This document shows, one piece after another, positions 75 through 15,121 of a stretch of DNA of 64,000 nt. Where the stretch lies: positions 1 through 64,000 of IMG/VR virus record IMGVR_UViG_3300037704_000085. One strand, given 5' to 3'. Every line of letters begins with the position of its first letter. Position 1 is the stretch's first letter. The translations under genes and the position numbers were made by a program. Below the pieces are notes generated by a model. It worked only from the letters and a program-made list of their open reading frames with translations, ran no database searches and was not told where the DNA came from. The DNA comes from a virus.

Positions 75-1163
75 ATGGCAACCACGAAGGGAAAGAAGAG
101 TGACGACAACCACAACAAGGCGGCTGGTCGCAGCCGGAGCGTTCGCCCTGATGGCGATGCCGTACCTACCGCCCCTGCAAAGCGCCGCGCCGTCAGCACC
201 AAGCCGGCCACCACTCGCGCCGCCAAGAAACAGCCTGACACTGTTGCGCCCGGTGGATCAGCACGACCCGTCAAACCGGGAAGAGCGAAGAAACCGGGTG
301 CGCGACCGAAGCCGCACGCATCGGAAGTAAAGGCGGTCCCGGCCCCGGCGGCGGGGGTGACAATACCCGCCGAGCCGCCCCGGCTGATTGACGCGCTGCC
401 ACCGAAGCAGCAACGGTTCGTCAGGGAGTACCTGATTGACTTGAATGGTACGCAGGCGGCGATCCGGGCCAAGTATTCAGCGAACTCGGCGCACGTTATC
501 GCTTGCGAATTGTTAAGAAAACCTAATGTCGCGGCGGCAATCAGGCAGGAACAAGAACGAATCTCGATGGCGCTGGAAATCACTTCCGAGAAGGTCGTCG
601 CCCGCTGGCAGGAACAGTTCGAGGCGGACCCCGGCGAACTGACGCAGTTCCGCCGGCATCCGTGCCGCAACTGCTGGGGCAAGGATCACCGCTACCAATA
701 CACGCCGGGCGAGTTCGACAAGGCCAAGCGTGATCACCAGATGGCCCGCGCGCAGGCGTTGGGCAAGTCGGGCGGCAAGGTCGATATCGGCGAGTTCAGC
801 GGCTTGGAGGGGGACTGGTACGACCGGGGCCGCGAACCGAACGTCGAGTGCCCGGAATGCTTCGGTGATGGCGTAGGCGAGACCTTCTTTGCCGACACGC
901 GCAAGCTGTCGAAGAAGGGCAAGGCGCTGTTTCTGGGGGTCAAGGAAGGCAAGGACGGGCTGGAAATCAAGATCGCGTCGCCTGAGAAGGCTGGCGAGTT
1001 CCTCGCGCGACACTTGGGTATCTTCAACGACTCATTGAAGGTCGAGGTCGCGGAAATGACCACTGAAGCCTTGGAAGAGCGTTTTGTTTCCAAAATGCGT
1101 GAGGCGCAGGCTAGGCAAATGCAGGTGTTGCAAGAGCGTGGTATTGATCCTGCTGATGACTAA
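75..1163 (+). CDS. terS: Terminase small subunit with basic N-terminal extension and Cys-rich insert
   Basis: KQQRFVREYLIDLNGTQAAIRAKYS (Terminase_2-type HTH); CRNCWG...CPECFG; upstream of terL. Confidence 0.9.
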   Translation: MATTKGKKSDDNHNKAAGRSRSVRPDGDAVPTAPAKRRAVSTKPATTRAAKKQPDTVAPGGSARPVKPGRAKKPGARPKPHASEVKAVPAPAAGVTIPAEPPRLIDALPPKQQRFVREYLIDLNGTQAAIRAKYSANSAHVIACELLRKPNVAAAIRQEQERISMALEITSEKVVARWQEQFEADPGELTQFRRHPCRNCWGKDHRYQYTPGEFDKAKRDHQMARAQALGKSGGKVDIGEFSGLEGDWYDRGREPNVECPECFGDGVGETFFADTRKLSKKGKALFLGVKEGKDGLEIKIASPEKAGEFLARHLGIFNDSLKVEVAEMTTEALEERFVSKMREAQARQMQVLQERGIDPADD

Positions 1164-1166
1164 TTT

Positions 1167-1976
1167 ATGAAAGACCGAACATCTTCCGGTATTTATAGGA
1201 TCGAGAACACAGTAAGCGGTCGCGTTTATATTGGATCGGCGTCTTCGCTAAAGAAGCGTCGTAATTCACATTTTGGGATGTTGAAAAAAGGAAAGCACCA
1301 TAGCCAAAAGCTTCAGCGCTCATTCGACAAGCATGGCATCGGCGCATTTGAGTTCCTGCTGATTGAGTACGTTAATGGCGGGGCCGCTCTTTTGGAGCGA
1401 GAGCAGTATTGGATTGATTTATACGATTCTGCCAATTCAGGCTACAACATACTTAAATTTGCCGGAAGAATGGAAGGCAGAGAGAAAAGCGAGGAAGAGC
1501 GCGCAGCAATCAGAGAACGCATGAAAGAGAAGTGGAAAGACCCTGATCATAGAGCCATGATGGTTGAGCTAAATTCAAGCCGGGTTTTCACTGATGAACA
1601 CCGCCGAAAAATGAGTGAGGCGGCAAAAAGACGGTTTGAAGACCTGTCAGAGCGTAAGCGTTTTGCTTCTCTGCGCGTTGGTGTTCCACTGACGGACGAA
1701 ACGAAACGAAAAATGTCAGCAAAAACGACTGGCAGTAAAAGAAGCGAAGAAACCCGAAAGAAAATATCAGATGCAGCAAAAGAGCGAATGAAAGACCCTG
1801 AATATCGGTTCAGACTTGGCAGGCTAAACAAGAGCAAGCCAATCACCGAAGAAACCCGCCAAAAGATGCGCGAAGCAGCGAAGAGGCGCATGGAAAACCC
1901 AGAGACAAGGGCGAAGATTTCTGCTACCAACAAAGGGAAAACAAAAACAAAACAACCGGCCCGTGTGCTTGCTTAA
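1167..1976 (+). CDS. Free-standing GIY-YIG homing endonuclease with NUMOD3-type repeats
   Basis: SGIYRIEN...YIGS, EQYWID, GYNI; repeats of S/T-EET(R/K)xK(M/I)S; AT-rich relative to flanks. Confidence 0.9.
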   Translation: MKDRTSSGIYRIENTVSGRVYIGSASSLKKRRNSHFGMLKKGKHHSQKLQRSFDKHGIGAFEFLLIEYVNGGAALLEREQYWIDLYDSANSGYNILKFAGRMEGREKSEEERAAIRERMKEKWKDPDHRAMMVELNSSRVFTDEHRRKMSEAAKRRFEDLSERKRFASLRVGVPLTDETKRKMSAKTTGSKRSEETRKKISDAAKERMKDPEYRFRLGRLNKSKPITEETRQKMREAAKRRMENPETRAKISATNKGKTKTKQPARVLA

Positions 1977-1979
1977 AGA

Positions 1980-3548
1980 GTGGCTAGAAAAACAATCCTT
2001 GATGACGACAGATACCCTCTTTTCATAGAAAGGTATCACGCCGATCCGCTGCGATTCGCAGTCGAGGTTTGCGGTTTCTCGCCGTCAATGGATCAGGAAG
2101 ATTTGTTTTGGGCAGTAGTTCCTATGTCCGCAAAGGTTTCTGTTGTTTCCGGCACGGGTACAGGAAAAACGACGGCGGTAGCTCGTATTGCTTTATGGCA
2201 CATGCTCTGCCACCCGATTGCTTTGTATGAGGGGAAGGTAGAGGTGGGGAGCAATACTTATTTGGGCGCTCCGAAACTCGCGCAGGCAGTCGACGGCGTG
2301 TGGAAAGAGATTAGTGATACGCGGCTTGCTATCGGAAACGGCTCATTCTCATGGTTGAACGGCTACTACACGATCACAAAGACCAGAATCACCGTAAACG
2401 GCTTTGATGATCAGTGGTTTATCGCTCAAGTAGCGCTATCGAAGGGCGAATCGGTAGGTATTGCCGGTAAGCACCGATGGGCGCAAATGATTATCGTTGA
2501 CGAGGCAGCGGGGGTTCCAGACGGTCACTTTGACGTGATCGACGGAACGCAAAACCAAGAGTGCAACCGGACAATCATGCTATCTCAGGGCGTCCGAAAT
2601 GCCGGCCGGTTCTACGAGTCACATCACAACCTGAACGTCAATAACGGCGGAAGCTGGACTTCGCTGCGCTTCAACTCCGAGCGCTCGCCATTCGTCACCA
2701 ACAAATGGCTCAAAGACCGCATGGACGAGTGCGGCGGGCGCGAGTCGGTCGAATACAAGATTCGCGTGCGCGGCCTGTTCGCCGAGGATTCCGGCGCGAA
2801 CCTGCTGACTCGGACCGAACTCGAACTGGCGTTCCAGCCGAAGAAGATCATCCGCGACGACGAGCCGTTTGGCCTGATCGTGCTGTCGGACGTGGGTATG
2901 GGCGAATACCGCGACGATTCGGTGGCCCTGATCGCCAAGGTGATCGGCAACGGCGACTTCGGCGACGACGCGCGCCGGGTCGAATACATCGAAATGCCCA
3001 TATGCACCAACACCAAGAATGAAATCGACTTCGCGGGCGATCTGGTCAGTGTCTTCGGCCGGCTGTCGAACGCGACGCTGCTGGTCGATAACGGCGGCAT
3101 CGGCGCGACGGTCAATAAGCTGATCGAGCGTTCCGGCGTGCCGGTGCAGAAGGTCGATTGGGGCAAGCCCTGCTTCAAGAAAGCGTACAAGGAACGGTTT
3201 TACAACCAGCGGGCGTGCGCCATGGTGCGGTTCAGGGACGCCGTGCGGCAGGGCCGGGTCGTGCTGCCGCAAGGGCTCGACAAAAAGATGCGCGAGAAAA
3301 TCCTGCTGCAAGGCGCTCGCCTGCCATACCACTTCGCCGAGGCCGGCGGACTGCGCTACGTCATGGAGAAGAAGGAAGTCATGCGCGAAAACGGCATCAA
3401 GTCGCCCGACATTATCGACGCCATGAGCTTCGCCTTCCTTGAGGACGCGCACTACATGCCGGCCGAGAGCGGCATCAGTCAGGGCGGCGAGAGCCGCAAG
3501 CAGTCGGCCCGCGAGAAGGCCGAAGAGGCGCTGGCGGGCGTCGCCTAA
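1980..3548 (+). CDS. terL: Terminase large subunit (P1 PacB-like)
   Basis: Walker A SGTGTGKT, Walker B IIVDEAAG, nuclease motifs SDVG and KSPDIIDAMSF. Confidence 0.92.
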   Translation: MARKTILDDDRYPLFIERYHADPLRFAVEVCGFSPSMDQEDLFWAVVPMSAKVSVVSGTGTGKTTAVARIALWHMLCHPIALYEGKVEVGSNTYLGAPKLAQAVDGVWKEISDTRLAIGNGSFSWLNGYYTITKTRITVNGFDDQWFIAQVALSKGESVGIAGKHRWAQMIIVDEAAGVPDGHFDVIDGTQNQECNRTIMLSQGVRNAGRFYESHHNLNVNNGGSWTSLRFNSERSPFVTNKWLKDRMDECGGRESVEYKIRVRGLFAEDSGANLLTRTELELAFQPKKIIRDDEPFGLIVLSDVGMGEYRDDSVALIAKVIGNGDFGDDARRVEYIEMPICTNTKNEIDFAGDLVSVFGRLSNATLLVDNGGIGATVNKLIERSGVPVQKVDWGKPCFKKAYKERFYNQRACAMVRFRDAVRQGRVVLPQGLDKKMREKILLQGARLPYHFAEAGGLRYVMEKKEVMRENGIKSPDIIDAMSFAFLEDAHYMPAESGISQGGESRKQSAREKAEEALAGVA

Positions 3549-3727: not shown

Positions 3728-3760
3728 CACGCCATACCAACCAACCGGGAGCATTGCATC

Positions 3761-4030
3761 ATGTCCAATACCATCGACCTAACCCCGACGTGGGCCGGCG
3801 TGCTGCCGGCGCTGCTGGCCGTGCTGGAAAGCGGGACCAACGAAGGCAAGAAAATGGCCCGTGAAGAGCTTGCCAAGATGGCGAAGGGCCTTGACCGCTG
3901 CAACGCTGTCGTGCCGGCGCTGCTTGAAGCGCTCGAAGGCGTCATGAAGCCGATTGCCGGTAGCGACAAGGCCCCGATGTATGAAGCGGCCCGCGCCGCC
4001 ATCGACAAGGCTAGATCAAAGGCCCTTTGA
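3761..4030 (+). CDS. Hypothetical phage protein
   Basis: GGGAG RBS; first gene after promoter; ends in PALLEAL...ARAAIDKA module. Confidence 0.8.
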   Translation: MSNTIDLTPTWAGVLPALLAVLESGTNEGKKMAREELAKMAKGLDRCNAVVPALLEALEGVMKPIAGSDKAPMYEAARAAIDKARSKAL

Positions 4031-4116
4031 AGCCCCTAACAAGCCCCTGGCTTGACCTTTTCTATGCCCCTGCCAAGGCGGTGGTATCCACAAGATCAAC
4101 CCACCGGGAGTACAGC

Positions 4117-4485
4117 ATGGCAACAGACGTTCAACTGGTTTCGCAGGCCAATCCGGGCCCGTGGCGGCTTTGCAGCAACGAACAGGACAGGGAGTTTCAT
4201 ATTGTTGACGCTGACGGCCTACCCGTGGCAACGGTGGAGACGACCATAGCGAGCAGTTGCGCGAAATGGTCGAATAAAAGGCTTTCGGCCAAGGAACTCT
4301 GGCAGTCGGTTGCCAACGAGCGCGAGCAAGCAAACGCCAGCCTGATCGCCGCCGCGCGGGAAATGGCCGATGCGCTGCGAGCAATCCTGTTTCAACTAAC
4401 GCAGGGCGACAAGGTATTCGACCGCGACGCCTGCATCACTCAAGCCCGCGCCGCATATATCAAAGCCACCGGGGGAAAATCATGA
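4117..4485 (+). CDS. Hypothetical phage protein (PGPW...ANAxLIAAA module)
   Basis: GGGAG RBS before ATG 4117; motif shared with next gene. Confidence 0.8.
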   Translation: MATDVQLVSQANPGPWRLCSNEQDREFHIVDADGLPVATVETTIASSCAKWSNKRLSAKELWQSVANEREQANASLIAAAREMADALRAILFQLTQGDKVFDRDACITQARAAYIKATGGKS

Positions 4486-4904
4486 GTACCAAGCCGACGC
4501 CCGGCCCGTGGAGCCGGCACCAATTCAGCGATAAGAAGCCGGTTGCTCTTCGTAGCGACGACGGCCGAGAGTGGCAGGCTTTCGAAGTATTCATCGGGGC
4601 CGGCGAGAAGATGGTTGCATCCGCGCTCATGAGTACGTCGACCGGCGGCTATCCGTCGCCGACGACCGTTGAGGAATGCGAAGCCAATGCCGCACTGATC
4701 ATCGCATCGCCAAAGCTGCTGGCCGCGTGCGAACTGGTCTTGCAGTCGTTCGGCTACGCGCCTGGGCAGGGGCCGGGGTGGTACGAAGTCGCCCGGCAGG
4801 CCGTCGCGGCGGCAAACTCGACGCCAATGATCAAGCTGACCGAGCGCGATGGAGACATCACGCCTGACGCGCTCGCTGCTGCACTCGCGCGGCCGGTTGG
4901 CTGA
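4482..4904 (+). CDS. Hypothetical phage protein (TPGPW...ANAALIIASPKLL module)
   Basis: ATGA overlap; common phage accessory module. Confidence 0.8.
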   Translation: MSTKPTPGPWSRHQFSDKKPVALRSDDGREWQAFEVFIGAGEKMVASALMSTSTGGYPSPTTVEECEANAALIIASPKLLAACELVLQSFGYAPGQGPGWYEVARQAVAAANSTPMIKLTERDGDITPDALAAALARPVG

Positions 4905-4951
4905 AGCGCCTGAAAGAAAATTCTCAACAACACCAATAAAGGAAGCCTGAA

Positions 4952-5158
4952 ATGTCAGCCTCACAAGATAAAGAAAACGCCGTCAAGGCCGAACAAGCTG
5001 CCGGCCTGCTGGTCGCCGATCTGCGCGATCTGGTCAAGACCGATTGCCCGCTGCTGAACATGCTGTCGATGCAGGCGCTGAATGAGGCCGTCATGCTTCA
5101 GCGCAAGATTCTGTCGATGGTTGAGGCGATCCAGTCCAAGAACGTCGAACGTGTGTAG
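4952..5158 (+). CDS. Hypothetical protein
   Basis: AAGGAAG RBS; typical codon usage. Confidence 0.7.
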   Translation: MSASQDKENAVKAEQAAGLLVADLRDLVKTDCPLLNMLSMQALNEAVMLQRKILSMVEAIQSKNVERV

Positions 5159-5447
5159 CCACTTGATCAACATCAGCGAGGCAGCGCGCGGCGTCGTCGC
5201 GCTGGATGACGAGTTGGCGCGGGTCAACGGGGAAATCGAAGCCCTGCAAATCAAGCTATCGGTCGCTGTGTCGAAGAAGTTGGCGATCATCAGGGCGATG
5301 CGAACGCTCGCCGAACCGGAGGAAAATAATGAAAAAAGCAACGCTGCTGTTGGACGCTGTTCTGGTCTTGCCGATATTCATCTGGGCAGCACTTGTGTTC
5401 GTCGTGCTGGCTCCGTTTGTGATGGCCGCTGCGCTCTTCACGAATGA
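5151..5447 (+). CDS. Hypothetical coiled-coil protein
   Basis: Fills gap; heptad-like segment; start uncertain, 3' end overlaps next gene. Confidence 0.5.
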   Translation: MCSHLINISEAARGVVALDDELARVNGEIEALQIKLSVAVSKKLAIIRAMRTLAEPEENNEKSNAAVGRCSGLADIHLGSTCVRRAGSVCDGRCALHE

Positions 5448-5508
5448 CCGCAAGGAACTGAGCTTCTGGCTGCGGGATCGCATCCGGGTCGCGCGGGGCG
5501 TGTTGTGA
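5329..5508 (+). CDS. Small membrane protein
   Basis: GGAGG RBS; long hydrophobic stretch. Confidence 0.65.
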   Translation: MKKATLLLDAVLVLPIFIWAALVFVVLAPFVMAAALFTNDRKELSFWLRDRIRVARGVL

Positions 5509-5675
5509 TGGCCTGCTTCACCAAGCAGAAGAAGGCTGATTCGCGGCCCCGGTGCATGGGCGAGAACGCACGCGGCCAGCGCTGCGTATTCAAGGCGTCC
5601 GGGTATCGCGCGGGCGAACCGGCGTGCGGCAGTCATCAGAAATCGAAGGTTTTCAGGGTATGGAGGTTGAAGTAA
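5508..5675 (+). CDS. 55-aa Cys/His protein, possible zinc finger (not in ORF track)
   Basis: TGATG and TAATG coupling on both sides; CMGENARGQRC...CGSH. Confidence 0.6.
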   Translation: MACFTKQKKADSRPRCMGENARGQRCVFKASGYRAGEPACGSHQKSKVFRVWRLK

Positions 5676-6229
5676 TGGATAACGAGCGCATCAAATCCCG
5701 GCTCAAAAAGCTCTTGGCGCTGGCGCGGCGGGGCGAAGGCGGCGAGAAGATCAACGCCCAACGCATGCTCGAAGCAACGCTGAAGAAGCACGGCATGACG
5801 ATGGAAGACCTTGACGACAGCGCCGAGACGCCGCAGGAAGTGAAATTTAAGTTTGTCGGCCCGCTTGAACGTGACCTGCTTGGGCAAATTCTCGTCATGG
5901 TGTTCCGGGCAAGGACCGTCGAGACTTACGGTTATCGGCGATTCGGCAAGGCGGTCCGTGGATTGGTCGGCGTGATGGCGACGCGGGCGCAAGCGGTCGA
6001 GATTGAAGTCGCTTTCGAGGCGCACAAAAAGGCGCTCAAGGCGTACATGAAGAAGCAAGCCGGGCTCGCGTTCAATGCCTACGTGCAAACCAACGAGCTT
6101 TACAGCGGAATCGAAAGCGACGACAAGAGCAAGTCGAAAATGTCGATGGCTGACCTGATGGCGATCAAGTCGATGATGGACCGATTGGAGCCGACGCCGG
6201 TTCACCGGCAGATTGAATCGAGGGTCTGA
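5675..6229 (+). CDS. DUF2786-like protein
   Basis: RLKKLLALARRG...EKINAQRML...KKHG; GGAGG RBS. Confidence 0.75.
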   Translation: MDNERIKSRLKKLLALARRGEGGEKINAQRMLEATLKKHGMTMEDLDDSAETPQEVKFKFVGPLERDLLGQILVMVFRARTVETYGYRRFGKAVRGLVGVMATRAQAVEIEVAFEAHKKALKAYMKKQAGLAFNAYVQTNELYSGIESDDKSKSKMSMADLMAIKSMMDRLEPTPVHRQIESRV

Positions 6230-11882: not shown

Positions 11883-11953
11883 ACGGAACGCCGAATTAAC
11901 AGGCGCGAGCGGCGCTGTTGCCGCGAAGCGTCCGGTTGAATGACGTGTTATGC
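11883..11953 (-). mobile_element. Integron attC site
   Basis: Minus strand: R'' GCATAAC, ACGTC, L'' ATTCAACC, GGACGC...GCGCC, L' TGTTAAT, TCGGC, R' GTT; both canonical extrahelical bases present. Confidence 0.88.
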
Positions 11954-12218
11954 AACTTGCAAAAATAATTGAGTAACGCCACTTGGAGGCCAAAAGCATG
12001 GCAACGAAATACCCGCAGTACCAGATTGGGCAGTGGATCGACACCAGCGAGGAAGCGATGAACAAGCCGCAAGCGACGATCCTTTACGGAGTGCAGATCA
12101 GACCGGAGAAAGGCGCGAAGTGGCGGCACTGCTGCCGTGATAACGAGCCGCTGATTTTCGACACGGTGGAAAAGGCCAGCGCGGCGATTGCAGAACTGAA
12201 GGCGCTCCCGTTGCATAA
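11889..12218 (-). mobile_element. Single 330-bp integron gene cassette, ORF antiparallel to attC
   Basis: G|TTATGCAAC at 12219-12210 (minus) is the perfect complement of the R'' end (+ strand GTTATGCAAC 11947-11956 vs GTTGCATAAC 12210-12219). Confidence 0.82.
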
Positions 12219-12228
12219 CGCGAAGTAG
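11998..12228 (+). CDS. 76-aa cassette-borne hypothetical protein
   Basis: GGAGG RBS; reads through the cassette boundary (...LHNAK*). Confidence 0.75.
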   Translation: MATKYPQYQIGQWIDTSEEAMNKPQATILYGVQIRPEKGAKWRHCCRDNEPLIFDTVEKASAAIAELKALPLHNAK

Positions 12229-12273
12229 GCCCACAAACCGGCGTATATCTCAACAAACGGGACTGTAAAAACA

Positions 12274-12441
12274 ATGAACCGCGCATTCCAGATCGCCAAG
12301 CACGTCGCGTCGCAGCTTCGCCAGTGGCCGTTCCGCGACCGCGCCGTAGTCGAGCGCGAAGTGACCAAGGCCATCGACAGCGGCAACGCGTGGCTGTTTT
12401 ACGAACCGAAGCAATTGGAACTATTCGAATGCCCAAAATGA
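12274..12441 (+). CDS. 55-aa hypothetical protein (not in ORF track)
   Basis: MNRAFQIAKH...QLELFECPK; high-GC3 codons; ATGA overlap with next gene. Confidence 0.6.
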   Translation: MNRAFQIAKHVASQLRQWPFRDRAVVEREVTKAIDSGNAWLFYEPKQLELFECPK

Positions 12442-13009: not shown

Positions 13010-13030
13010 CGGCGCGCGTTGTGCCATTAT
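12989..13030 (+). promoter_or_regulatory. Putative late promoter
   Basis: CGGAAAGC 12989 and CATTAT 13025 (+36), same spacing as four other sites. Confidence 0.65.
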
Positions 13031-13036
13031 TCTGGC

Positions 13037-13318
13037 ATGCTATCCACGTCAAAATTCTACCGGGAAGTTCGCCGATTCTGCGTTCAAGCGCCGGTCTGGT
13101 CGAGCGATGTTGTTCGCCATGAAGTGCTGCCCGACGAGCGGTTCGACCTGTCGCTGGTGGCCTACCGCGTCTATGGCTCGCGCAACGAGTTCCATGCGGT
13201 GATGGCGGCGGCGGGAATTGACCGCTACGACCGCCCGCTGGAGCAGCAGACGATTGTCCTGCCGTCGCGGTCGATGCTGGAGCAGATCAAGGCCGCGACC
13301 GGCTTCAAGAGCGCATGA
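13037..13318 (+). CDS. Baseplate LysM/gpX/gp53-type protein (P1 gp26-like)
   Basis: DLSLVAYRVYGS...VMAAAG...IVLP; precedes gp25-like gene as in P1. Confidence 0.65.
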   Translation: MLSTSKFYREVRRFCVQAPVWSSDVVRHEVLPDERFDLSLVAYRVYGSRNEFHAVMAAAGIDRYDRPLEQQTIVLPSRSMLEQIKAATGFKSA

Positions 13319-14109
13319 AAAAGAATACCTGCGGGGTCTATCAGATCACCGCGCCATCTGGCAACTTCTATATCGGATCGTCGTTCTGCATGCGAAGCCG
13401 ATGGTCGGGGCATCGCGTCGATCTTCGCAAGGGTTCGCACCATTGCGCGGCGCTTCAACACGCCTCAAACAAACACGGTATCGACAGTCTTAGGTTTAGC
13501 ATCCTGCTGGTCTGTGACCGCGACAATGCGCGCTTCTACGAACAGCTTGCCATTGACGCATTCCAGCCGGAATACAACTCAACCGACAGTACGCGCGAGC
13601 CGCTGAGCGGGCTTTGGCAAGACCCGGAGTTCCGGAAGGCTGGCGTCGACAGGTGTCGCGAGCAGGCGATTCAGTGGCGCAAAAGCCCTGAGTGGGTGGC
13701 TAACCAGAAGGCCGGTGCCGGCGCGGCGCTCGCAAGGCTGCATACAAACCCAGAGTTTAAGAAAGCCCATGCGGAGCGAATTCGAGAGAGGATCATCCGA
13801 GTCAATGAAACGCCCGGCATTCGAGCCAAGGCGGACGAGACTCGGCGCACAAGGATGGCGGAAGACAAGGCCGATCCAGAGCGTTGGGCGGCGCGCAATG
13901 CCAAAATTCGCGAGCTTCTCGAAACCCCTGTTCTGTGTGTCGAGACCGGGGCGGTTTTCAAGAGCCAGAAGGAGGCCGGCAACTGGCTGAACGTCGAACA
14001 CGGGTTCAAGTCGTCCGGGCATATCAATAACAACCTGAAGGGCCGCTGCAAGCAGGCTTACGGCTTCACTTGGCAGTATGCGGAGGTCAGCAATGCCGAA
14101 CATCGATAA
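13315..14109 (+). CDS. Free-standing GIY-YIG homing endonuclease with C-terminal NUMOD1-type HTH
   Basis: CGVYQI...FYIGSS, EQLAID, PEYN; PVLCVETGAVFKSQKEA...AYGFTWQY. Confidence 0.88.
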   Translation: MKKNTCGVYQITAPSGNFYIGSSFCMRSRWSGHRVDLRKGSHHCAALQHASNKHGIDSLRFSILLVCDRDNARFYEQLAIDAFQPEYNSTDSTREPLSGLWQDPEFRKAGVDRCREQAIQWRKSPEWVANQKAGAGAALARLHTNPEFKKAHAERIRERIIRVNETPGIRAKADETRRTRMAEDKADPERWAARNAKIRELLETPVLCVETGAVFKSQKEAGNWLNVEHGFKSSGHINNNLKGRCKQAYGFTWQYAEVSNAEHR

Positions 14110-15121
14110 CCGGCAAGGCGCGTTGCGCGCTGCTGATGCGCGGCGCGAAGCCAAGCTTGAAACAAAGCGACAAGAGGCCGTCCGAGCGGCAGCGGCAACG
14201 ATCCTAAACCCCGACGAAGTGGCCGGGGACTACGACGCCAAGCGGATGTTGATGACAACGCTTGGCGGGAGAGTTCGCCCGCTGACGAATGAAGACCTTC
14301 GGCAGTTTCAACACAACATTCGTCAGGCCAAGAAGAAATATAAGGGCGGAATTTCTGCGAAGCAGGCTATCGACCTATCACTGCCAGAGGACAGGAAGAG
14401 AGCGGCCGAGGAAATCAAAAACGCTTTGCCGGTTTCTTCTCAGGCTGGCGTGGTGCATTTCCAGACCAACGCAGGGCCGAAGTCTGACAAGCAGCGCCAC
14501 CACGTCTACGTGCAGTTTTTGAACTTTGAGGCAGCGGTGTCGAGCCCAAAACATGCCGACAAGATCGTTCAGGAACTGATCGACGGGAAGTTGAAATTTG
14601 ACTGCGATTGTGGACGCCACCGTTTTTGGCACAGATTTACGGCCACCATCGGGCAGTGGAACTATCGCCTTGCCGAGCAGGGATTCCCCCGTGTACGAAA
14701 TCCGGGGTTGCATGGCGTCGCGTGCAAACACGTTCTGCGCGTGATGACAATGGTTCGCCAGTCGCCAACGATCAAAGGCTATCTCACCCGCATGATCGAC
14801 GCCGCGCGGGCCAAGCTGGACCGCAAACGCGAGGATGTCGCCGTGTCCGAGGTCAAGGACTTGGCCGAGAAGTTGAAGGCCGAGAGCCATCGCCAGCGCC
14901 GCGTCGCGACGACGGACGAGAAGCGCCGCGAGCGCGAGCGCTGGGCCAAGTCGAAGCCGGTTCAGGACATGAAGGCGGCGGTCTCCACCAAGGTCAAGAG
15001 CAAGGCCGTCAAGGTGGCGGCGAAGGCGGTCGAGGCGAACATTCAAAAGATGCTGTCCATGGGCGCGCTGACCAAGGCGCAAGCCGCTACCATGCTGGCG
15101 GCAATGAAGGGCGTGAAGTAA
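14093..15121 (+). CDS. SWIM-type zinc-finger tail protein (P1 gp25-like)
   Basis: FDCDCGRHRFW...RNPGLHGVACKHVLRVM; GGAGG RBS. Confidence 0.75.
   Translation: MPNIDNRQGALRAADARREAKLETKRQEAVRAAAATILNPDEVAGDYDAKRMLMTTLGGRVRPLTNEDLRQFQHNIRQAKKKYKGGISAKQAIDLSLPEDRKRAAEEIKNALPVSSQAGVVHFQTNAGPKSDKQRHHVYVQFLNFEAAVSSPKHADKIVQELIDGKLKFDCDCGRHRFWHRFTATIGQWNYRLAEQGFPRVRNPGLHGVACKHVLRVMTMVRQSPTIKGYLTRMIDAARAKLDRKREDVAVSEVKDLAEKLKAESHRQRRVATTDEKRRERERWAKSKPVQDMKAAVSTKVKSKAVKVAAKAVEANIQKMLSMGALTKAQAATMLAAMKGVK

Follow-up and report, generated by a model that had tools for sequence, protein, structure and literature searches.

The segment 11889..12218 of the DNA analysed here, a window of 64,000 nucleotides corresponding to positions 1 to 64,000 of the IMG/VR record IMGVR_UViG_3300037704_000085, is, with a probability of about 0.8, a bona fide lone integron gene cassette (SALIN) that a host integron integrase (IntI) would have inserted in trans into the genome of a tailed phage. 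This record, which CheckV rates as complete, is a virus contig of 90.8 kb, whose phage genes include those for the small and large terminase, portal, tape measure, baseplate and tail fibre, all located on the plus strand. The cassette is 330 bp long, the top strand of its attC site (11883..11953) is the minus strand, and its ORF, P0001 (76 aa; 11998..12228, plus strand), is antisense to attC. An earlier examination of the letters of the window (the sequence-only reading) had described a circularisable cassette with an antisense ORF, placed in a phage early operon with no integrase in the window; the cassette, its circularisability, the antisense ORF and the absence of an integrase were borne out, and the label of early operon was not, since nothing identifies as early the small-ORF stretch that separates the terminase genes from the tail genes.

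The attC site was identified with R1, a covariance model built on 15 attC sites of IntI-linked arrays of Burkholderiales and on the aadA1 attC of R100; an integron integrase was found in 84 of the 201 sampled Burkholderiales genomes, a tally which includes the unpublished genome G027, and 16 array regions were taken for model building. In the controls, 98 of 98 array sites were on the strand that the location and orientation of intI predict, and in R100 the top strand was the sense strand of aadA1. R1 matches positions 11883-11953 on the minus strand with 41.8 bits and an E-value of 4.2e-8 over 135 kb (2.2e-9 with the filters off around the site), a mid-range score in comparison with real array sites (22-69 bits). 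The plus strand of the site gives no match at E<=10, and the strand margin of the match exceeds 30 bits. No second match was found in the window, around the site with the filters off or in the remaining 27 kb, the site being the sole match in 90.8 kb; 306 kb from 28 related phages gave 0 matches at E<=1, and no false match of R1 was seen in about 400 kb of phage DNA. A covariance-model search had been proposed as a check of the sequence-only reading, and this independently built model upholds it, on the minus strand only. Among 23 attC sites of the loci that hold the P0001 family, 90.3% of the cells are paired as compared with 70.9% in shuffles and with 24-45% in a control in which the partners were slid, and compensatory changes occur at 9 of the 12 pairs of the inner stem.

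The boxes, the 5-nt spacers, the two extrahelical bases and the 10-bp match between cassette start and R'' all lie where they had been placed before. On the minus strand, R'' (7 nt, ending in AAC; 11953-11947) is followed by a 5-nt spacer (11946-11942), L'' (8 nt; 11941-11934), a GC-rich and imperfect variable stem-loop of 32 nt (11933-11902), L' (7 nt; 11901-11895), a second 5-nt spacer (11894-11890) and R' (11889-11883), of which only the G|TT at 11889-11887 belongs to the site proper, the remainder being flank. Measured from R'' to G|TT, the site has a length of 67 bp, which becomes 71 bp if the whole R' box is counted, and known attC sites measure 57-141 bp. In the L box 6 of the 7 pairs form, the spacers are unpaired, and two bases of the bottom strand (the plus strand of the window) are also unpaired: a G located in L'' (11938), at alignment column 16, and a T at the base of the variable stem (11931), the third base of the inner stem, at column 23. 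These columns are the positions named G16 and T23 in attCaadA7 (PMC5027507). The cassette start (12210..12219, plus strand), complementary to the R' half, pairs with the extended R'' (11947-11956) in an inverted repeat of 10 bases out of 10, or of 12 out of 13 when extended (11944-11956 with 12210-12222), the R box being paired with the cassette's own start over 10-12 bp; this pairing is retained through different letters in the related contigs L001, L008 and L009. The crossovers, 11888|11889 and 12218|12219, bound exactly 330 bp, an extent indicated by the G|TT of the model alignment, by the complementary ends and by the fold of the joined ends.

In fact, when the ends of the cassette are joined, the full R box is restored and the bottom strand of the reconstituted circle junction forms one long imperfect hairpin of -21.7 kcal/mol (z -3.67), which only 1 of 300 shuffles equals; the same length as integrated reaches -14.6 kcal/mol (z -0.28), and 107 of 300 shuffles fold as well. 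The difference between the two forms agrees with the claim that the cassette is circularisable. As integrated, 4 of the 7 R-box pairs form and, in view of this partial pairing and of the non-significant fold, the site may no longer be efficient.

With regard to its classification, the element shows the R''/R' boxes, the L box with the extrahelical bases, the spacers and length of an attC site and the match to the covariance model; as a gene cassette, it holds an ORF and an attC between G|TT crossovers, and the same gene is found beside IntI elsewhere. The ORF is antisense, not co-oriented with the attC top strand as a cassette expressible from Pc would be. This polarity does not exclude it from gene cassettes, because reverse-oriented cassettes are known and 16 of the 77 control cassettes are antisense by the longest-ORF measure. 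Moreover, the cassette is not adjoined by the intI and attI of a complete integron and, as the genome has one attC and a CALIN needs at least two, the element falls among the SALINs.

P0001 is preceded by a Shine-Dalgarno sequence (GGAGG, 11985-11989) located 8 nt upstream of the ATG, and its GC content by codon position (0.55/0.40/0.78) is similar to that of the neighbouring genes. A sigma-70-like promoter match (9/12; 11940..11969, plus strand) lies inside the cassette and is directed towards the ORF, with one site against 0.3 expected; on this weak evidence it may act as the promoter of the ORF. The ORF is co-oriented with the phage genes and, as had been noticed from the letters, ends outside the cassette: beyond the right crossover follow the last base of an Asn codon (12219) and the codons 12220-12228, which specify Ala, Lys and the TAG stop (12226-12228). 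The homologues are alike up to this Asn codon, which contains the AA|C crossover, and beyond it they have unrelated tails or stop at the core TAA; the variation at the G|TT boundaries that had been predicted for relatives is therefore present, in the form of different sequence beyond the crossover. In the window, the end of the ORF (12195-12228) is about 7 nt shorter before the core than in relatives, as compared with 4195-4231 of L001; this shortening shifts the frame, so that translation passes the usual core TAA and terminates in phage DNA, giving the protein another tail. The ORF restored by excision, in the frame 12219-12428, was rejected as a gene on its GC by codon position (0.76/0.57/0.40, real genes here having about 0.6/0.4/0.8); this frame is the shadow of the 55-aa gene P0003. 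The P0001 protein belongs to no Pfam or PHROG family. Its AlphaFold model has a pLDDT of 83, and Foldseek against the PDB gave nothing significant; the best VIA-align match is YaiA with a Z of 6.0, which is within the noise range, and the Atlas search returned viral hypothetical clusters only, in addition to YaiA at 0.79.

The cassette is located in a variable stretch of small ORFs between the terminase (75-3548) and the tail, baseplate and portal genes, its immediate neighbours being two small genes without known function; in 28 distant related phages, conservation of the stretch around the cassette is absent. Neither IntI (TIGR02249) nor the tyrosine recombinase domain (PF00589) has a match in the whole 90.8-kb record, which extends the lack of an integrase from the window to the complete genome. 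The blastn search of the cassette region against the phage collection gave no match, the neighbour genes P0002 and P0003 have no relatives among the viral contigs, and the viral contigs contained no exact match to the junction predicted for an empty site (11888 joined to 12219). Relatives with an empty site, which the sequence-only reading had suggested looking for, were thus not found in the viral contigs by junction or neighbour-gene searches, and for this reason the insertion event itself is undocumented. Among the sequencing runs searched, the region is present only in the probable source sediment sample and only as contigs, and no joints or excised form were seen at this contig level. A contig of 151 nt from this sediment (run X1) carries the attC core as at 11887-11934, with 5 differences in 48 nt, and its L'', R'' and flanks differ from those of the window; it is a sister attC of another cassette in the same community. 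The gene of a GIY-YIG homing endonuclease (13315-14109), at a distance of 1.1 kb from the cassette, lies between the genes 13019-13318 and 14078-15121. About 25 related phages have these two genes directly side by side; the endonuclease gene looks like an insertion specific to this lineage.

The family of P0001 is small and associated with phages; the 32 homologues found in the database all come from metagenomes, and about 20 genomic contexts were recovered for the family. The only match in a bacterial genome is in Paenacidovorax caeni, one of the 401 Burkholderiales genomes searched, in which the family ORF is 137 nt from the start of intI and is hence the first cassette; the IntI of this species scores 460 bits (cut-off 265) and a LexA-box-like palindrome is located before intI. 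In the metagenome contig L009, which encodes an IntI of 410 bits, the family ORF is the second cassette. The search for the ORF in integron arrays, which the sequence-only reading had advised, therefore shows the same gene as a cassette beside IntI in two cases. In both cases, the orientation of attC is canonical relative to intI and the ORF is antisense, which independently confirms the polarity observed in the window. The P. caeni contig (L024) also has a second strong attC of 45.4 bits (2006-2065, plus strand), located 3' of intI on the strand opposite to the array attC. The integron of L009 (2834-6081) is small and complete, with IntI at 3738-4838 and two antisense cassettes; it adjoins an Arm-type phage/ICE integrase (4828-6081, minus strand), and a phage-type DNA methyltransferase is located upstream of it. 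In this contig the attI crossover is a mere 45 nt away from the start of intI, a distance at which transcription of the cassette ORFs may continue into intI.

In the phage-like contigs L001, L003 and L006-L011 the family gene lies within arrays of 2-6 attC sites, and the neighbours on these contigs include a Cas4-type exonuclease, a helicase, an Ant anti-repressor, an exonuclease and a PAPS reductase. In particular, L011 contains at 1148-2220 a phage-type PAPS reductase (305 aa) that is antisense between two attC sites and is a typical gene of phage replication modules packaged as a cassette. A further group of contigs (L002, L012, L014, L016, L017 and L020-L022) holds the family gene in tight, ordinary phage operons with no attC. 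The attC sites beside the closest relatives of the ORF, which share 86-88% DNA identity within it, are not alignable with the attC of the window, so ORF and attC have not simply been travelling together recently; downstream of the ORF of L003 there is a truncated attC. The family tree needs 4 label changes with weak support and is too short for the direction of transfer.

As the phage has neither IntI nor a tyrosine recombinase, IntI-mediated recombination in trans is the likely route of the cassette into its genome. According to this mechanism, a circular cassette of 330 bp would have been inserted by a host integron integrase acting in trans and would have entered through the folded bottom strand of attC, which here is the coding strand of the phage. 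The target would have been a G|TT located where two small phage genes are separated by intergenic DNA; its attI-likeness is not significant, the P. caeni and L009 attI-junction scores being reached by 17% and 37% of control sites, respectively. By this insertion the antisense ORF would have become co-oriented with the phage genes, and it could be transcribed by read-through or from the weak promoter-like site within the cassette, with a frame change near its 3' end extending it into phage DNA by 9 nt, which make up three codons, the last of them the stop.

The site could in principle be a chance hairpin with a fortuitous inverted repeat, or a terminator or regulatory stem-loop of the phage that resembles attC. 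As integrated, it does not fold better than shuffles in a separate test (z -0.16 and -0.86), a loose scan for geometry finds 8 matches in the genome and is unspecific alone, the 7-mer core is not enriched, although its count is uninformative, and the Rfam search returned no attC family and only noise matches. This explanation is nevertheless extremely improbable and is refuted by the score of R1, with its strand margin and its lack of false matches in phage DNA, by the absence of a T-tract terminator at the site, for which the terminator reading was rejected, and by the linkage of the family to attC and IntI elsewhere. A more substantial alternative is that the cassette is the relic of a larger attC array, acquired by recombination between phages and with the other attC sites decayed, so that no insertion by IntI took place here. 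The arrays around the same gene family in related contigs, the turnover indicated by unrelated attC sites beside close relatives of the ORF and the truncated attC of L003 agree with such a history; however, no attC remnant is detected on either side of the cassette, even with the filters off, the homology-free flanks start at both crossovers, the two ends fit together as one attC stem, and the 28 related phages lack attC in the corresponding region. On balance, a relic of this kind is unlikely.

A different question concerns the origin of the gene, which may be native to phages: attC sites would come to flank phage genes, integrons would capture them, and the copy in the window would have arrived from another phage. 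This possibility falls only somewhat short of even odds. It is favoured by the rarity of the family in bacteria, with one positive among the 401 Burkholderiales genomes and one match in the genome collection, by its frequency on viral and metagenome contigs, and by the fact that its most divergent members lie without attC in tight phage operons. In addition, the cassette occupies position 1 or 2 in both integrons, as expected of a recent acquisition, and is antisense to the array, and typical phage genes such as the PAPS reductase are found between attC sites. The family tree, on the other hand, gives no direction for these exchanges. A phage origin of the gene is also compatible with the preferred explanation of the window copy, namely its insertion as a cassette by a host integrase.

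The polarity of attC relative to the genes was measured in three samples as the strand of the longest inter-attC ORF with respect to the attC top strand. In the IntI-linked arrays of Burkholderiales, 61 ORFs are sense and 16 antisense; the proportion is reversed in the deduplicated arrays that hold the P0001 family (3 sense and 16 antisense; Fisher p 5e-7 against the IntI-linked arrays) and in 80 loci of IMG/VR for which a 15-base attC motif was the sole criterion of choice (15 sense and 37 antisense; p 2e-8), a comparison that is based on crude ORF calls and on one type of attC, and in which IMG/VR may include non-phage DNA. The 15-base motif occurs in at least 120 stretches of viral contigs. 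In the 80 loci (L090-L169), R1 finds 245 attC sites, and IntI is present in one only, L116; 35 of the 80 have at least two of the best 150 attC sites and some arrays exceed 10. Several of these arrays are located within a few kb of genes for portal, tail-spike or head-morphogenesis proteins, RecE/RecT or primase-helicase.

From these data, attC arrays seem to be frequent on viral contigs and, for the most part, inverted with respect to the genes. As a tentative proposal, somewhat on the doubtful side, phages may carry their own widespread attC cassettes of reverse polarity, in which the coding strand is the recombinogenic bottom strand and expression would be due to phage transcription, not to Pc. 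If this is true, the accessory genes of phages would be highly exchangeable through host integrases, and phage genes would be fed antisense into bacterial integrons, as in P. caeni and L009. The functional meaning of the antisense polarity is a matter of conjecture. Bottom strands that lie on the lagging-strand template are known to fold and to be excised far more (PMC13108822), and folding on the lagging strand as the cause of the polarity in phages is likewise conjectural.

Phages that carry attC sites, CALINs and even integrons, among them virulent phages devoid of IntI, were described by Qi et al. 2023 (PMC9892861), who found that 5 of 6 phage attC sites were recombined by IntI1 and proposed exchange through host integrases. 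The element in the window shares with these the condition of a canonical attC cassette borne by a phage without IntI; in contrast, that screen needed at least two attC sites per phage, and the phage examined here has one. Neither ORFs antisense to attC nor a gene family common to phage operons, phage arrays and IntI-linked integrons was found in the passages of PMC9892861 that were searched, and a description of antisense polarity in phage attC arrays was not found in the literature searched. SALINs and attG insertion were reported for isolated cassettes in bacterial genomes (bioRxiv 10.1101/2022.09.11.507474), whose route of insertion is the one proposed here. The window element has in common with SALINs one cassette with one attC, remote from an integrase or other att site, and its flanks, like theirs, are those that one crossover at a G|TT of ordinary double-stranded DNA could leave; SALINs are from bacterial chromosomes, whereas the target here is a phage genome.

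With the attC sites of aadA1 and aadA7 (R100; PMC5027507), the site shares the order of the boxes, the 5-nt spacers, the L box of 8/7 nt, the unpaired bases at 16 and 23 and the GC-rich variable stem; in class 1 cassettes, unlike here, the ORF has the same sense as the attC top strand and its expression is driven by Pc. The chromosomal arrays of Burkholderiales have the same type of attC, down to the conserved first and last parts of its variable stem, but they adjoin IntI and their ORFs are mostly sense, whereas the cassette of the window is antisense and without IntI. The promoter-stem-loops (PeSLs) of T4-type phages are regulatory cassettes through which small genes are shuffled, their repeats undergoing homologous recombination with one another. 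They resemble the window element in the repeated intergenic stem-loops that flank small accessory ORFs, in the plastic phage regions concerned and in the modular exchange; they differ from it in that they are not known to have an attC architecture or a tie to integron integrases. On the whole, the window element is a further instance of a published kind and differs as a single cassette in a complete, integrase-free phage; the apparent novelty seems to be that the genes are antisense to attC, here and mostly on other phage contigs.

The gene capture that underlies multidrug resistance is mainly due to integrons, and the origin of their cassettes is a long-standing question. In this respect, a complete phage devoid of an integrase can carry a single canonical cassette, and the fact that two real integrons have its gene family in their first positions documents, directly at the sequence level, an exchange between phage genomes and integrons. 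If the antisense majority holds, phages would be a reservoir and possibly a birthplace of cassettes, with their own logic of expression and recombination.
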